Notes: generated by a model from the sequence alone, not told the origin. 64,000 nt of DNA from Candidatus Thorarchaeota archaeon (GCA_048882045.1 JBHLRZ010000007.1:1-64000), one strand, 5' to 3'; positions 761-6,756 are shown, numbered from the stretch's first letter. Translations and numbers: made by a program.

Positions 761-1675
761 TTGAAGAGACTGGAAGGATTAAGGGAAGATGAGTCTCTTT
801 TTCATCAAATTAGATGTTCGTATGAAGAACAAATGGGAGACTTACTTCTCACAGACAAAGGAGTAGCTTATCTTCAGATCAAGGGCATTCTTGGAGAAGG
901 TCACGAACGCCTTCATGATTTTGGTTACAATGAGATAAGTCGTATTGGAACTAAAAGGAAGATGTCAGGAATTTACAGACATGGTATAGTCATAGGTCAG
1001 CAGAGTGATTCTGAAATAAACCACTCATTCTACTATTCGTGTGAAAAACACAAAGCTGTTCTCTTCCACTCATTATTTGAAAGACAGAAGCTCCTCCTCG
1101 AATCACCTGGAGACTTGACATCCACAATTCAGAGTTTGGAGATGATCAAACGCAACGCTGATTTGTTAAAGGTAGCCAAGAATCCTAATCTTCGACCGTA
1201 CTTCTTTGCATTCACTCTAGACAAGCTAGAAGGCGAAATCTTGAGCATTCTGAAATACAGATTCGAAGTCGACCTATTCGAACTTGCAGGAAACAAGGAG
1301 ATTCATTCACTCGTTTCGCTATTACATGAAGCCGATTCGAGAAAAATGCCAAAGGATCAAGTGTACAAAACAGTCTTGGATTTAGTAGGTCATCTGATTG
1401 AACAAGGAGAATTACAAGGTCTAATCACCGATCTAGGAACGTACGTTTCCAACAAAGCGTTGGACAGAATACCAGCACAATATGATACCATAGCTGATTT
1501 CAGGACTATCTTCTCTCAGCTGAATGAGAAGGGCTTACTTGTCTGGGCACTTGAGTGTCCAGCCTGTTCGAGAAAGCTAAAGTATCCAAAGATCGGAAAA
1601 AGTACTAATTGTCAATTCTGTGGAGAAACCATCTACGCAAGAGATGTCTTGAAGAAGTTCATAGATCTTCTTTGA
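761..1675 (+). CDS. Hypothetical protein: PH/GRAM-like N-terminus, winged-helix-like middle, C-terminal CxxC-CxxC zinc ribbon
   Basis: 304 aa. GDLLLTDKG motif, LIEQGELQGLI motif, CPAC...CQFC. SD-like GGAGAG upstream of TTG. Confidence 0.7.
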   Translation: MKRLEGLREDESLFHQIRCSYEEQMGDLLLTDKGVAYLQIKGILGEGHERLHDFGYNEISRIGTKRKMSGIYRHGIVIGQQSDSEINHSFYYSCEKHKAVLFHSLFERQKLLLESPGDLTSTIQSLEMIKRNADLLKVAKNPNLRPYFFAFTLDKLEGEILSILKYRFEVDLFELAGNKEIHSLVSLLHEADSRKMPKDQVYKTVLDLVGHLIEQGELQGLITDLGTYVSNKALDRIPAQYDTIADFRTIFSQLNEKGLLVWALECPACSRKLKYPKIGKSTNCQFCGETIYARDVLKKFIDLL

Positions 1676-1693
1676 TGCAGTGACGAAACTCAA

Positions 1694-3586
1694 TTACACT
1701 TCTCTTGAGAAAATAGCTTGCTTTGAAACCAAATTCGGAAGCAGAAGACGTTGTCGAGGTGCGAAATTTATTTTCTCTGCAATTTCTTTCGATAAATCGT
1801 CAATGCTCATTTTCACTTGATCCTTCAATTCTCGCCTCCTAACAGCCAATTCGCCACTCGTCTTTTCTTTCTCGCCTACAACAACAATATAGGGAATCCA
1901 CAGTTTCTCTGCAGCACGAACTTTCTTACCTACGGTCTGAGACCTATCGTCAATCTCATAGCGAATACCATTAGCATCGAGGACTTTGCCAAGCTCCAGA
2001 CAATATTCTATATAGCTGTCATCTACAGGTGCAAATCGCACTTGTACGGGGGTCATCCAAAGTGGGAGATGAGGAACCTTACCAGCTTTCATGTTCTTGT
2101 ATGCCTGTTCAAGAACCCCATAGAGGATTCTCTCAATGGCTCCTGAGGGCGAGGTGTGAAGGATGAGTGGATATTTCTCCTTGCCATCTTCATCAACATA
2201 GGTGATGTTGAATCGTTCTCCATTCTCAACATCAATCTGAACAGTACCTAGACAACCTGCTTTCTTCTGAGCGTCAACGACGTTATACTCCAGCTTGAAG
2301 ATGAAGTAAGCATATCTCTCATCAAACACTTCTACCAAAACAGGTTTACCTATTTTGTCTACAACTTTTTGCGCGAAATCTTTGTTCCTCTCATAGAAGT
2401 CTCTAAGAATTCTGTATGACACCTCGATAGATACTTCAAGTTCGTTGTGAAGTTTCTCTTCAAACTCCATCTGTCGCAGTACAGCCTCCATGGCCATCTC
2501 TTCATCAGCAACTATCTCGTGGATGTCCGGCATCGTGAATGCTCGTAGCCGTCTCATCCCAGCGAGCTCCCCACTCTGCTCACGACGATATGATGGAGCA
2601 ATCTCGAACAGTTTCAATGGTAGCTGTTTGTGGGACACAGTCGCCTGTGAAATCGTAAGGAATTGCCCAAAGCACGCACTGAACCTAGCAAAGTAATCAT
2701 GGTCTCCAGACTTCACAACATACTGCCTTGATGGGAATCTTTGGAGGTAAGATTTCAATGATGGATGTTGATAATCATAGATGAGCGGAGTCTGAAGCAC
2801 ATGAGCACCATAGTCGACCATCTCCTGAGTGACTCGTTCTTCTATCGCCTTCTTCAGGGTGAGCCCTCTTGGAGGCCATCTGAAGTTGCCTGCATCAGAT
2901 CCAGGTTCATAGTCAACAAGCTCAAGCTGTTTCATCAGCTCGATATGTGGTGGAGGTTCCTGGGCAGTTCGATCCTTCTCGGTCTCATAGTCCACGTAGA
3001 GTTTGAGTTCCTTGTGTTTGGCATAGTTGAAGTCTTTGATATCAGTGACCTTGCCGCCAGGCTCTATGATATAGAATACCGAGGTTGCTTTCTCTTCAGC
3101 GACTAATGCTGTAAGATCTTCTCCATCCGTGACCTCGACATCAGCATCCTTTGCAATAACTTTGGAAATGTCAAGAACCTTGGAACGCTCTGCAAGTGGA
3201 TGTCCCTTACAATGAAACTCGAACGCTTTGTACCATCCGAAAGGTACTCGAAGCACGTTGAATCCTCGCTCCTTCAGGTCTTTTTCAACAGACTTCAGCA
3301 GTTTCAAAGCGACACTCGGTTTCGAAGGATTCTCTGAGAGATGCACCCAAGGATATACAATGATGTTCTGTTCCTTGACCTCCTCAGCTGCACTGGCAAT
3401 CATGTCCGCAGTCTCTTTTGCTGCGAGACCCACATCCTTTGCATCTGTTGTTTCAGCAGCGATGAAATTGATCAGGCAGGAATCTTCGGTCTTGTAGAAT
3501 TTCTCTTTAACCTCTTCTGCGTTCTTCAATGCTTTTCTCTTCGCTTCATAGGCGAATCCATCGCTGTGAATCTGTAGCATTCTCAA
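1694..3586 (-). CDS. thrS: Threonine--tRNA ligase, archaeal type with N-terminal editing domain
   Basis: MRMLQIHSD and YPWVHLS editing-domain motifs, PFGWYKAF.CKGHP, class II motif 2 (YRREQSGEL..RLRAFTMPD), C-terminal anticodon-binding domain. Confidence 0.97.
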   Translation of the reverse strand: MRMLQIHSDGFAYEAKRKALKNAEEVKEKFYKTEDSCLINFIAAETTDAKDVGLAAKETADMIASAAEEVKEQNIIVYPWVHLSENPSKPSVALKLLKSVEKDLKERGFNVLRVPFGWYKAFEFHCKGHPLAERSKVLDISKVIAKDADVEVTDGEDLTALVAEEKATSVFYIIEPGGKVTDIKDFNYAKHKELKLYVDYETEKDRTAQEPPPHIELMKQLELVDYEPGSDAGNFRWPPRGLTLKKAIEERVTQEMVDYGAHVLQTPLIYDYQHPSLKSYLQRFPSRQYVVKSGDHDYFARFSACFGQFLTISQATVSHKQLPLKLFEIAPSYRREQSGELAGMRRLRAFTMPDIHEIVADEEMAMEAVLRQMEFEEKLHNELEVSIEVSYRILRDFYERNKDFAQKVVDKIGKPVLVEVFDERYAYFIFKLEYNVVDAQKKAGCLGTVQIDVENGERFNITYVDEDGKEKYPLILHTSPSGAIERILYGVLEQAYKNMKAGKVPHLPLWMTPVQVRFAPVDDSYIEYCLELGKVLDANGIRYEIDDRSQTVGKKVRAAEKLWIPYIVVVGEKEKTSGELAVRRRELKDQVKMSIDDLSKEIAEKINFAPRQRLLLPNLVSKQAIFSREV

Positions 3587-3663: not shown

Positions 3664-4887
3664 TTAGTGACCGGGTCTATTCTTCAAAATTAAAACAGCC
3701 ATGACTATAATGATGACACTCGAACCCATTGCGAGGATGAGAGATAGTTGTTGTAGTGGTGTTTCATTCCCAGTTCCATTAGTTGTGGTTGTTGTGGTTG
3801 TTGTGGTTGTTATATTGCCACCATCAGGAATAGTGCCATTCGGAAAGTGGTCAATGCTTCCAGCTGGTCCAGGGATGAAATAGTAGCCTATCCCGGAATA
3901 GTCACTCCAGAAGTTTCCAATCTGGGAATATGAGTCATCCCAGGAGTTCTCTGTACCGCTATCATATGCATTACTTCCTGAGGTAGGACCAATTGTGTTG
4001 TTCACCACTGTAATATTATATGTTCCCTCTCCCAGATAGACACTACACTCTGTCGAATTAGAGAAGGAATTCTCCCATATCCATGACCCGTTAGTCATTA
4101 TCATTTCTAGTCCAAACTGACATTCATCAACGAAATTGTCATTGATCGCAATATTCCAAGAATCATGAGAGAATATACAGACACCCTCGAACATCTCTTC
4201 ATCCCATAAGTTGCTCGTGATATTGTTGTCACGGATGTAGGTGGATTTGTCACGAACACACACGACTGCATAATCGGGGATGGATATGATTGAATTCTCT
4301 ACTAGCGTACATTGATCTGTCAGAGTGAAGTTGACACCGACCCAATCATTCCAACCGAAGTTGTTGTTTTCCACATAGACAAATTGACTCTCCATAACTG
4401 TGAGCCCGGTGTAACAGTCATGAGTAGTTGTGTGACTAATTCTGATATTGAAGGAATCACAAATGAAGATCCCTGTGTCTTTCATATGAGCTTGTGAACC
4501 CTCAATCAAACCGTTTGAGCAGTTGATGAGTTTAATTCCCGTTGACCCCCAGTATTCTGAGTCCGTGTCATGTATATCACAATCAGTGATTGCAAAATGC
4601 AAGTCTACATTCATTATTGTGATGCCTTCATATGAGAACGAAATCCAATAGTTAGAAATCATTATTGGATTCCCTGGTTCTCCGCTCCCTGACCACTCAT
4701 TTGCCATCTGTTGTGAAAGGAGATCAGTATTGTTCCGGACTATGATTGGTTCGTGTACCTCCAGTTGTGCGAGAAGTACGTCAGTATCAATGGGTTCAAC
4801 CAGTGATGTCAAACTCTTCATCGAGCTTCCAAGAGTCCCTAATAGCAATAACATGAGCACTACACAGAATCCTGATTTGTATCTCAA
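3664..4887 (-). CDS. Membrane-anchored right-handed beta-helix (NosD/CASH-like) surface protein
   Basis: N-terminal signal, HEPIIV..N..W.GSG..GNP motif, PbH repeats, GNFWSDY motif, poly-Thr linker, C-terminal TM helix. Confidence 0.85.
   Translation of the reverse strand: MRYKSGFCVVLMLLLLGTLGSSMKSLTSLVEPIDTDVLLAQLEVHEPIIVRNNTDLLSQQMANEWSGSGEPGNPIMISNYWISFSYEGITIMNVDLHFAITDCDIHDTDSEYWGSTGIKLINCSNGLIEGSQAHMKDTGIFICDSFNIRISHTTTHDCYTGLTVMESQFVYVENNNFGWNDWVGVNFTLTDQCTLVENSIISIPDYAVVCVRDKSTYIRDNNITSNLWDEEMFEGVCIFSHDSWNIAINDNFVDECQFGLEMIMTNGSWIWENSFSNSTECSVYLGEGTYNITVVNNTIGPTSGSNAYDSGTENSWDDSYSQIGNFWSDYSGIGYYFIPGPAGSIDHFPNGTIPDGGNITTTTTTTTTTNGTGNETPLQQLSLILAMGSSVIIIVMAVLILKNRPGH
3782..3811. repeat. 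9-bp tandem repeat (GTTGTGGTT x3) encoding poly-Thr linker
   Basis: Seen directly in sequence. Confidence 0.85.
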
Positions 4888-5086
4888 TGGAAACTCCCAC
4901 CTATGTTGTGTTGATAGTTGGAGGATTATTTACACTTAAGTCAATTTGTAGTTTCTCGAACACATTTCTAACACAAGCTTGATGGAAGCGTGAATGGTAT
5001 TGTTGTTGTATCAGCTTGCTGAATCCTATTGGCACACTCAGAGGTTCAATGAAAGATTCGCACGCTCTGTCAACGTTGAACACCAA

Positions 5087-5094
5087 CTATATTA
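5087..5094 (+). promoter_or_regulatory. Putative TATA box of the aromatic operon leader
   Basis: CTATATTA ends about 25 nt upstream of the leader-peptide ATG (5120), the spacing expected for a leaderless archaeal transcript. Confidence 0.5.
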
Positions 5095-5119
5095 GGTCAC
5101 GTACCAGAATTTTGGTTTA

Positions 5120-5212
5120 ATGAAAATCTTGACTGAAAATGCAGTAGCCACTCGAACATACTTGACGGTAGACCGTCAGTATAGTGGCGTCTATTATAGC
5201 TATTATAGCTGA
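5120..5212 (+). CDS. Putative Tyr-rich leader peptide (30 aa, MKILTENAVATRTYLTVDRQYSGVYYSYYS)
   Basis: ATG 5120 to TGA 5212, followed by TAG. 6 Tyr codons, 5 of them in the last 10 codons. Directly upstream of a tyrosine-biosynthesis operon. Confidence 0.7.
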   Translation: MKILTENAVATRTYLTVDRQYSGVYYSYYS

Positions 5213-5352
5213 TAGACTGCAAGTCGAGATATTCAGCACTCATGTGCTGATACTTGTTCTGGTGGTTCTATGACTCTAAGCTCAAATCTAGTGGATGGGA
5301 GGTCTCCCTGTATTGGTCCCATAATCAATATGCTAAAGGAGGAGATAGAAGA
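5120..5352 (+). promoter_or_regulatory. Structured attenuator-like 5' leader
   Basis: Helices 5126-5134/5222-5230, 5147-5152/5183-5188, 5163-5168/5173-5178, 5189-5194/5212-5217 and 5233-5239/5244-5250. Alternative helix 5146-5158/5255-5267. Confidence 0.6.
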
Positions 5353-5356
5353 TTGA
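5270..5356 (+). CDS. Putative second uORF (28 aa, MTLSSNLVDGRSPCIGPIINMLKEEIED) coupled to first operon gene
   Basis: GGTGG SD-like motif at 5261-5265. Stop TGA overlaps the TTG start of the next gene (TTGA at 5353-5356). Confidence 0.35.
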   Translation: MTLSSNLVDGRSPCIGPIINMLKEEIED

Positions 5357-6756
5357 CAGATACCAATAACTTGAGCACTCTAAGAAAAGAGATTGAACAG
5401 CTAACCTTAGAGATTGTCAGACTTGCTGGTAAAAGGACCAAACTGACTACTGATATTGGATTGGAGAAGCAAAGGCTTGGTTTGTCTTTGGTCAACAGAG
5501 AAGTTGAACGGAATCTCCGGCTTAAAGTTCTGAGGCAGTGTGCTGAAAATGGCCATGATCCTAACTTTGCACTTAGACTAGTCAATGAACTAATCATAGA
5601 ATCGATCAGCAAACAAGAACTTCTCGAGGAACCTGAGGAACCTGAGGAACCATTGAGTGCGTATCACATCTTTGTAAAAGTAAAACAACTTGAGAATGAG
5701 GGCAAAGAGATCATTCATCTTGAAGTCGGAGAACCCGACTTTGGCCCACCAAAACCAGTTGCTGAATCTTTAACGAAAGCAGCAGTTTCAGGACATGCAG
5801 GATATACTCAGTCATCGGGAATTCGTGAACTGCAAGAAAAAATTGCAGCTTATGTAAACCAATCGTTTAATTCGGATATTGCAACTGAACAAATCATAGT
5901 CACTGTTGGGGGACGATTCGCATTATTCTTGGGCTTAGCTACAAATCTAAATCCTGGAGATGAAGTGATTATCATCGATCCATCATATCCGGGTTATTCT
6001 GATTGTGTCAAGGAAATGGGAGCAAGACCTGTTCACATATCCGCTAAACTTGATGATGGATGGAACATTGATCCTGATTTATTGAATGAAGCAATCAATC
6101 GAACTACAAAGATGATTATAATCAATAGTCCGGGAAATCCTACAGGCAAGATTGTTGAAAAAACTGACCTAAAGATGATTGCAGACCTTTCAATCGATAA
6201 TGGCCTCTTGATAGTTAGTGACGAGGTTTACTCAGCGTTCTCGTTCAGACCATTTACAAGTGTGCTTCAATTTCCAGAATGCAACCACATCCATGTCAGC
6301 TCATTCTCAAAGACATTTGGTATGACTGGATTCAGACTGGGATATGCAATATCTTCAGCTGAAACCATTCAGAGAATGATCCAGCTTCAAAACCTCTCAC
6401 TAACATGTGTCTCCGAATTCGTTCAGCATGCAGGTCTCAAAGCATTGGATTGCCTAGAAGAATCGAGAGACTATGTTGACCTGGTTATGCGTAGACAGAC
6501 CATTATTACCAAGGAGCTGGACAAACTACCCGTAAGGTATCATCAACCTGAAGGAGGATTCTATGTTTTTCCAAAGATTAGTTATGATCTCACAGGAGTA
6601 GAATTTGCGGAAAGGCTTCTTACAGAGAAAGATGTAGCTGTTGTCCCAGGAACAGCTTACGGGAAAGACTTCACTCAGTTTTTCAGAATCTCAGTTTGTC
6701 AACCTGAAAATAATCTCATTGAATCAGTCCGGAGAATGGAGGAGATTCTATCGTGA
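5353..6756 (+). CDS. Chorismate mutase (AroQ) - class I/II PLP aminotransferase fusion
   Basis: N-terminal LSTLRKEIE..IVRL..R..IG..K..REVE AroQ pattern. Aminotransferase motifs LEVGEPDF, NSPGNPTG, SDEVY, SFSKTFGMTGFRLGY. Start placed at TTG 5353 after SD AGGAGG. Confidence 0.88.
   Translation: MTDTNNLSTLRKEIEQLTLEIVRLAGKRTKLTTDIGLEKQRLGLSLVNREVERNLRLKVLRQCAENGHDPNFALRLVNELIIESISKQELLEEPEEPEEPLSAYHIFVKVKQLENEGKEIIHLEVGEPDFGPPKPVAESLTKAAVSGHAGYTQSSGIRELQEKIAAYVNQSFNSDIATEQIIVTVGGRFALFLGLATNLNPGDEVIIIDPSYPGYSDCVKEMGARPVHISAKLDDGWNIDPDLLNEAINRTTKMIIINSPGNPTGKIVEKTDLKMIADLSIDNGLLIVSDEVYSAFSFRPFTSVLQFPECNHIHVSSFSKTFGMTGFRLGYAISSAETIQRMIQLQNLSLTCVSEFVQHAGLKALDCLEESRDYVDLVMRRQTIITKELDKLPVRYHQPEGGFYVFPKISYDLTGVEFAERLLTEKDVAVVPGTAYGKDFTQFFRISVCQPENNLIESVRRMEEILS
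5626..5652 (+). repeat. 9-bp tandem repeat encoding EEP-EEP-EEP interdomain linker
   Basis: GAGGAACCT GAGGAACCT GAGGAACCA. Confidence 0.85.

Follow-up and report, generated by a model that had tools for sequence, protein, structure and literature searches.

What does the 270-nt leader region between a divergent beta-helix protein gene and a run of overlapping genes do in a Candidatus Thorarchaeota archaeon, and how might it act on the genes that follow? The locus lies in a window of 64,000 nt (GCA_048882045.1 JBHLRZ010000007.1:1-64000). The first gene of the run encodes a chorismate mutase-aminotransferase fusion and is followed by genes for prephenate dehydrogenase, DHQ synthase and DAHP synthase (Pfam PDH_N, DHQ_synthase and DAHP_synth_1), with overlapping junctions at 6753, 7613 and 8692. 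The operon contains tyrA and is without pheA, and an adjacent threonyl-tRNA synthetase carries an archaea-specific editing domain. Positions 5084-5356 are the leader of a tyrosine-branch aromatic amino-acid operon of this Thorarchaeota (Asgard) archaeon. We read the region, with a probability of about 0.6, as a ribosome-dependent translational attenuator that senses tyrosine; the analysis establishes its helices with their conservation and covariation, two conserved open reading frames (ORFs) and the rival pairings, and we infer the transcription start, the translation of the ORFs, their coupling and the direction of control.

5353-6756, plus strand: first operon gene, chorismate mutase-aminotransferase fusion, TTG start, Pfam CM_2 and Aminotran_1_2

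The TTG start at 5353 aligns with an ATG, GTG or TTG in relatives. An aromatic-rich N-terminal extension of the first gene from a TTG at 5254 (5254-5352) was rejected, orthologs having stops in that frame. On the other side of the leader, the divergent neighbour (3664-4887, minus strand) is a NosD/beta-helix protein with a ten-threonine run and a C-terminal hydrophobic segment, and is probably a surface protein.

The leader opens with a promoter element and a short ORF, uORF1.

5084-5096, plus strand: archaeal promoter element CAACTATATTAGG, TATA box with upstream flank, conserved in all leaders
5120-5212, plus strand: uORF1, leader peptide MKILTENAVATRTYLTVDRQYSGVYYSYYS followed by a stop codon, frame kept in some 23 leaders of six or more genera

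The 13-nt TATA element reads CAACTATATTAGG or AAAGTATAATAGG in every leader, and its distance to the uORF1 start (ATG or GTG) is constant at 35-37 nt with variable intervening bases. Since this spacing fits the usual archaeal TATA-to-start distance, the 5′ end of the transcript would lie at the uORF1 start codon or a few bases before it. In many leaders the promoter-proximal start is a GUG with an in-frame AUG four codons on; the true start of uORF1 is uncertain and may differ between clades. Genome-wide, SD-like pentamers peak sharply 12-16 nt before ORF starts (at least one quarter of 1467 genes, with crude starts), and no leaderless signature in the form of a TATA-like hexamer peak about 30 nt before starts was seen, again with crude gene starts, so that mRNAs of this thorarchaeon appear to be mainly SD-led and short-leadered. 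The 3′ end of the 16S rRNA, sought for its anti-SD sequence, was not found in the assembly.

Six of the 30 uORF1 codons encode Tyr here (codons 14, 21, 25, 26, 28 and 29), compared with a background Tyr frequency of 3.4% in the proteome; as in an attenuator, codons cognate to the pathway stand before the pathway operon, in this case its tyrosine-branch genes. Across the leaders uORF1 measures 29-32 codons, and the indels inside it (3, 3 and 6 nt) are all in-frame. A Tyr cluster that follows ‘SG’ within the last eight codons is present in all of the roughly 23 leaders. Its arrangement differs (YYSYY, YYYDY, YYSFY, YSYSY, YYRY, YYWY, SYSY) and both UAU and UAC are used, while the rest of the peptide is mostly variable, chiefly at unpaired RNA positions. 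Tyr codons 14 and 21 pair with each other within helix P2 (described below) in this genome, and one relative (L063) changes both together, to Leu and Phe. The Tyr codons to which the first-pass annotation had drawn attention belong to a conserved leader ORF that, judging from these comparisons, is probably translated.

A genome-wide scan for small ORFs with amino-acid runs before genes placed the Tyr leader about 19th of 7192, so that enrichment by itself is not unique. None of the other top candidates that were checked lies upstream of an amino-acid biosynthesis gene, and a second amino-acid leader was not found in the genome. A YYYY mini-ORF before an MFS transporter was rejected as a second Tyr leader, its orthologs being without that ORF. 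Two loci deserve mention in their own right. The YYYY mini-ORF lies in a conserved block of about 150 nt that precedes an MFS transporter gene in 19 of 27 genomes of the genus (G000 contig C8, about 111400-111600; L047, about 1500-1700, minus strand); the block contains a long inverted repeat GGGGGCC...GGCCCCC followed by GAATATATTTAAGCAAATGTCAGATTGCGGATAC, its downstream flanks differ, it has no Rfam match, and it may be a small RNA or a promoter element. An EamA-family transporter gene (G000 contig C5, 20080-20985; L087) has a TTG-started small ORF with CHSCCC 2 nt upstream. EamA relatives export cysteine or O-acetylserine; the ORF may be there by chance.

BLAST retrieved six orthologous leaders within the same genus, and pattern scans added two more from metagenomes. 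Fusion gene and leader co-occur in the identical 7 of 28 genomes of the genus, and the leader core is 94% identical at the nucleotide level where the adjacent fusion protein is only 46-59% identical. More distant leaders came from the DNA upstream of remoter fusion-gene homologs, and two covariance models were built. With these models the leader turned up as a single copy in each of 12 genomes among the 86 of the family, and 10 of 26 sampled family members were positive; 124 genomes from 26 other families of the phylum had no match. Altogether some 23 different leaders were collected, spread over at least six genera of a single Thorarchaeota family and always accompanied by the fusion gene. 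Exact-pattern scans of genome and metagenome collections returned only the same clade, plus one chance match in a Bacteroidales MAG. At two Bathyarchaeota-type loci (L064:1290-1420 and L067:1330-1450) a hairpin AUAGCCACU...AGUGGCUAU lies upstream of the same fusion gene, with a U-run and then GGUG or GGUU farther on; a Tyr-rich ORF is absent there and the Thorarchaeota covariance models do not match. This hairpin could belong to an unrelated leader or to a very distant relative.

The uORF1 RNA is predicted to fold into four helices, P1, P1b, P2 and P3, which together we call fold A and which are followed by a hairpin, P4; X and Y denote the 5′ and 3′ strands of P1.

5126-5133, plus strand: X, P1 5′ strand AUCUUGAC, uORF1 codons 3-5, pairs with 5223-5230
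5141-5145, plus strand: P1b 5′ strand GCAGU, pairs with 5216-5220
5147-5188, plus strand: P2 arm GCCACU...AGUGGC with apical GACGG-UAGA-CCGUC, supported by minimum free energy (MFE) folding and covariation
5189-5217, plus strand: P3 arm made of Tyr and Ser codons plus the stop codon, supported by MFE folding and conservation
5223-5230, plus strand: Y, P1 3′ strand GUCGAGAU, with CUUG at 5253-5256 as alternative partner
5233-5250, plus strand: P4 hairpin UCAGCAC-UCAU-GUGCUGA, tip of the sequestering hairpin

The first-pass annotation had proposed, by eye, a multibranch fold closed by 5126-34/5222-30 with arms at 5147-5188 and 5189-5217 and a separate hairpin at 5233-5250; all of these are found at those positions in the MFE structure, and the multibranch fold is conserved in the approximately 23 orthologous leaders from at least six genera. 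The MFE of 5100-5360, with P1, P1b (GCAGU/ACUGC), P2, P3 and P4, is -84.9 kcal/mol compared with -65 +/- 5 kcal/mol for 200 dinucleotide shuffles, none of which was equally stable (z -4.0). P4 alone has -11.1 kcal/mol (z -3.85). Fold A is the MFE structure in 8/9 close and 6/6 divergent leaders, with alternative folds 1-10 kcal/mol above it.

Covariation in support of the fold is strong as soon as divergent leaders are included. Among the nine closest leaders 99% of the pair cells are kept with one compensatory pair, a non-significant result (46 of 500 shuffles), and covariation is scant there because the sequences are so alike. In the 19-sequence alignment, which was fitted to a structure model and therefore leans toward structure, 93.5% of the fold A cells are paired and ten compensatory pairs are seen in 38 cells, a covariation that comes from a few deep lineages; none of 500 shuffles did as well, and slid-alignment controls gave at most five pairs. 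Within P1, one pair is A-U nine times and C-G eight times, a second is U-A ten times, C-G eight times and U-G once, and a further one is found as C-G, U-G, A-U and U-A; the changes are thus from A-U to C-G and from U-A to C-G, with U-G in this genome. The ninth P1 pair (5134/5222) is not conserved. P1b is replaced in other clades (ACAGAA:UUCUGU, UUCAC:GUGAA, UGAAU:AUUCA), the base of P2 is compensated (ACCACU:AGUGGU in L082, GGAAUC:GGUUCC in L083), and an apical P2 pair is G-C here and A-U elsewhere. P3 of the divergent clade is a hairpin of the type CUAUAG:CUAUAG built from UAU-AGY repeats, and P4 is found as a hairpin in every leader, with unrelated sequences and a stem of 4 to 12 bp.

A fold of this kind might bind a ligand, a protein or tRNA-Tyr in the manner of a riboswitch or T-box, the ORF being incidental to it. 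The close clade is indeed highly conserved at unpaired and paired positions alike, and a UAGCCACU...AGUGGCUA hairpin stands before the same gene at the two Bathyarchaeota loci that are without a Tyr ORF. However, the covariance models fail to match those loci, and in divergent leaders the junctions, the loops and even GCCACU change, whereas the frame, the start spacing and the Tyr cluster stay. Furthermore, the search of Rfam that had been suggested as a way to exclude a T-box or known riboswitch gave no match: Rfam 15 at the gathering threshold had none in the whole 64-kb window, and at E values up to 10 there was none on the plus strand of 5040-5360, T-box (RF00230) included, with weak unrelated matches only further upstream. 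We therefore consider a binding site highly improbable and continue with the ribosome-dependent attenuator.

Downstream of fold A a ribosome binding site, SD2, heads a second short ORF, uORF2, whose start codon is referred to as AUG2.

5252-5269, plus strand: Z, pyrimidine-rich tract plus SD2 (GGUGGU, 5261-5266) plus spacer, conserved
5270-5356, plus strand: uORF2, 28 codons, its TGA stop overlapping the TTG start of the first gene (TTGA)

Z is an invariant UGGUGGUUCUAUG in clade I, and SD2 reads GGUGAU or GGUGCU elsewhere. Among 23 leaders uORF2 is 25-52 codons long; the first 13 or so codons are similar, after which sequence and length diverge freely. Its end nevertheless overlaps, or lies within 2 nt of, the start of the fusion gene in 23/23 leaders. 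The junction is TTGA here and ATGA, ATGnnnTGA, TAGTG or a 2-nt gap elsewhere, with GGAGG 11-15 nt upstream. All nine close leaders keep the uORF2 frame open from AUG2 to the fusion start, for which the chance probabilities multiply to about 5e-5 (calculated over 8-9 close leaders), and the other two frames over this region are mostly closed. At three loci (L063, L070 and L071) the deposited annotation has uORF2 itself as a hypothetical gene of 41-51 aa, and in GCA_048882205.1 (L066:1501) the deposited call of the fusion gene is 16 codons too long and starts inside uORF2.

The junction of uORF2 and fusion gene has the features of a translationally coupled overlapping pair, namely the overlap of stop and start and an internal SD. 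Overlapping stop-start pairs are tightly coupled by termination-reinitiation in archaea (PMC6728339, PMC10666635), and by analogy with the pairs studied there (PMC6728339) uORF2 would be translationally coupled to the fusion gene. The internal SD (SD3) has a predicted partner of its own.

5303-5308, plus strand: UCUCCC, predicted partner of SD3 (GGAGG, 5338-5342), probability 0.7-0.9, in this genome only

The pairing of TCTCC with the SD of the first gene, which had been put forward from inspection, is thus predicted for this genome; it is not conserved in orthologs, where the partner of SD3 differs.

SD2 is in turn subject to pairings that compete with fold A, and the central element is a strand that we call the anti-RBS2 mask.

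5212-5221, plus strand: anti-RBS2 mask AUAGACUGC, common to the 3′ strands of P3 and P1b

When the 5′ part of the leader is withheld, 17/17 leaders fold into a long hairpin that is capped by P4 and in which the mask is paired to SD2, its spacer and the beginning of AUG2. Y pairs in this hairpin with the CUUG of the pyrimidine tract, a pairing that is mutually exclusive with P1. X, Y and Z change in concert at one position: most leaders have U/A/U, this genome has U/G/U and L063 has C/G/C. In clade II the mask is GAGAGUCACY and doubles as the P1 3′ strand. The mask lies in 3′ strands of fold A in both clades, so that one strand is always common to fold A and the sequestering hairpin. A compensation is also seen between mask and SD2, where position 5 of SD2 changes from G to A and its partner from C to U (G-C to A-U). 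Duplex energies of mask and RBS2 range from -6 to -15 kcal/mol; on shuffling of the 5′ arm, no clade I sequence taken singly has a mask pairing that exceeds chance expectation (control fractions 0.2-0.8).

That the leader holds mutually exclusive pairings involving the GGTGG SD-like motif, as claimed at the outset, is borne out: at the leader ORF, X:Y stands against Y/mask:Z and against pairing of the P2 5′ strand with Z. The particular competitor named there, 5146-58/5255-67, does form 12 of 13 pairs and, at -14.0 kcal/mol, is the strongest competitor in this genome, with -8 to -12 kcal/mol in close relatives. It is not a conserved competitor, however, since in the divergent clade, where SD2 is GGUGAU and the GCCACU strand itself is replaced in two genera, the P2 5′ strand pairs with SD2 at only about -5 kcal/mol, whereas mask and SD2 pair there at -12 to -15 kcal/mol. 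The competitor that is conserved is the mask, which the first-pass annotation had overlooked and which we regard as the most important alternative.

The same hairpin could be seen differently, namely as a signal for premature transcription termination, with P4 extended by Y:CUUG and followed by the U-rich tract as the terminator and P1 as the antiterminator, the choice between them being made by the ribosome. P4 is kept as a hairpin despite free variation in its sequence; the divergent clade has a GC-rich P4 with UUGUUUU, UCUUUUCU or GUUUU immediately after it; and Y:CUUG both excludes P1 and covaries with it. In this genome and in G020, however, the tract is UUGUUCU, with no run of more than two U, and archaeal RNA polymerase terminates on oligo-U and is not known to need a hairpin. 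A conserved antiterminator partner for P4 was searched for and none was found. The tract itself forms part of the stem of the sequestering hairpin and directly abuts a conserved SD and start codon, a position suggestive of a role in translation. We regard termination as unlikely. Every leader is predicted to sequester SD2; only some members of the family show a terminator-like hairpin followed by a U-tract. Because SD2 heads a conserved, putatively coupled uORF2 and no U-run follows the hairpin here, the evidence favours a translational rather than a transcriptional output of the attenuator.

We modelled the footprint of a ribosome on uORF1 by equilibrium folding of 17 leaders, taking the median probability that SD2 is unpaired. 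Free RNA, without a ribosome, gives 0.25. A ribosome on the start codon lowers this to 0.09 and one on codon 5 to 0.06; with the ribosome at the first Tyr of the cluster the value is 0.18, at the last Tyr 0.10, and at the stop codon 0.23. The effects are only 2- to 4-fold, and the RNA is predicted to be most open when it carries no ribosome. The first-pass annotation had held that the position of the ribosome on the Tyr codons selects the fold. A footprint on uORF1 does alter the predicted accessibility of SD2, but one on the Tyr cluster lowers it: in none of the modelled states did a Tyr-stalled ribosome open SD2, accessibility falling relative to the free RNA. The robust rule in these models is that SD2 is predicted to be open as long as fold A, above all X:Y, is formed, and to be closed by occupation of X or disruption of fold A.

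These values also bear on an explanation with the opposite amino-acid logic, or none, in which a ribosome that has come to the end of uORF1 would cover the mask and thereby open SD2, coupling uORF1, uORF2 and the operon in series as a positive relay. The Tyr codons would then throttle expression at low Tyr-tRNA, or would simply result from the UAUAG palindromes of which P3 is made. In the model, a ribosome at the stop leaves SD2 about as open as it is in free RNA, and one on the last Tyr makes it less accessible; the clade II stop of uORF1 lies 3-4 nt before the mask strand, which is also Y; and UAU-AGY repeats do build the P3 stem. Closing the tyrosine pathway during tyrosine shortage would, however, be physiologically senseless, and the Tyr cluster persists where P3 is built otherwise, with UAC codons and the arrangements YYYDY, YYRY and YYWY being unfit for a palindrome. 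Such a relay is in our view decidedly unlikely.

In the tyrosine-sensing attenuator that we favour, uORF1, ending in its Tyr cluster, lies almost wholly inside fold A, and the position of the ribosome on it, arrested at the Tyr cluster when Tyr-tRNA is scarce or running through to the stop, would set the partner of the shared strand. An intact fold A would lock the mask away and leave the uORF2 site comparatively open. With fold A opened, above all with X occupied, the freed mask would close the hairpin over SD2, the spacer and the AUG, with P4 as its tip, and in this genome the freed P2 5′ strand would also be able to close SD2. Initiation at uORF2 would be handed down the operon by termination-reinitiation via the overlapping gene starts. 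We take the direction as ON at low tyrosine, on kinetic grounds alone. An arrested ribosome would stop short of Y and leave X free, P1 could form before Z is transcribed and may also hinder further loading at the 5′ end; run-through ribosomes would keep X busy and, at the stop codon, would sit on or beside Y. An OFF state at high tyrosine would need kinetic assumptions, since the models have free RNA as the state with the most accessible SD2.

The nearest experimental precedent is found in mycobacterial leaderless polycysteine short ORFs (Ms5788A), which control translation initiation with the effect passed to downstream operon genes (bioRxiv 10.1101/834739). Both are short ORFs at the 5′ end of the mRNA, presumed so in our case, that end in codons for the pathway product, and in both the leader RNA pairs with the next SD, here by prediction. 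The mycobacterial system, however, is bacterial and senses Cys, and its codon tract itself pairs with the SD, so that a stalled ribosome uncovers the SD directly. In the Thorarchaeota leader the strand that pairs with the SD is found downstream of the Tyr codons and also takes part in a four-helix fold, uORF2 is interposed as an additional ORF, and the promoter is of the TATA type. With the trpL, pheL, hisL, ilv and leu leaders it has in common a shared strand in mutually exclusive helices and a stop codon near that strand. Compared with the trpL type, this genome is without a convincing intrinsic terminator and the output is most likely SD sequestration, and in place of the 1:2/2:3/3:4 scheme there are three or four competing partners. 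In ermC/cat attenuation, too, hairpins in which the next SD is hidden are remodelled according to where the ribosome stands on a leader ORF, but there a drug-bound ribosome is sensed via the nascent peptide, whereas here it would be the supply of charged tRNA-Tyr and the regulated ORF would be a short relay. T-box leaders (tyrS/tyrA in Firmicutes; translational ones in Actinobacteria) likewise report the status of tRNA-Tyr in cis and some of them free an SD; the Thorarchaeota leader does not match the T-box model, lacks a specifier loop and the conserved T-box bulge, and has a conserved ORF running through it. To our knowledge Rfam contains no family of tyrosine leaders.

In bacteria, leader-peptide attenuation is a textbook mechanism that relies on transcription-translation coupling and hairpin terminators, and cis-acting RNA regulation in archaea is generally sparse. 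No description of an archaeal leader-peptide attenuator was found in the literature searched. On balance we are inclined to see in this locus the first ribosome-mediated leader-peptide amino-acid attenuator in Archaea, combining a probably leaderless Tyr sensor ORF, a covarying four-helix fold and a relay uORF that would gate the translation of an entire shikimate/tyrosine operon. The work adds a new RNA family, represented by two covariance models, with some 23 members spread over six or more genera, and corrects gene starts in several deposited MAGs. If our reading is true, ribosome-stalling attenuation would not be confined to bacteria and could rely on translation only, in a domain whose polymerase has no hairpin-dependent terminators. 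The chain from sensor uORF via relay uORF to overlapping genes suggests a route to purely translational control of a whole operon, and the leader offers a concrete testable case of ribosomal amino-acid sensing in the closest prokaryotic relatives of eukaryotes, the Asgard archaea.
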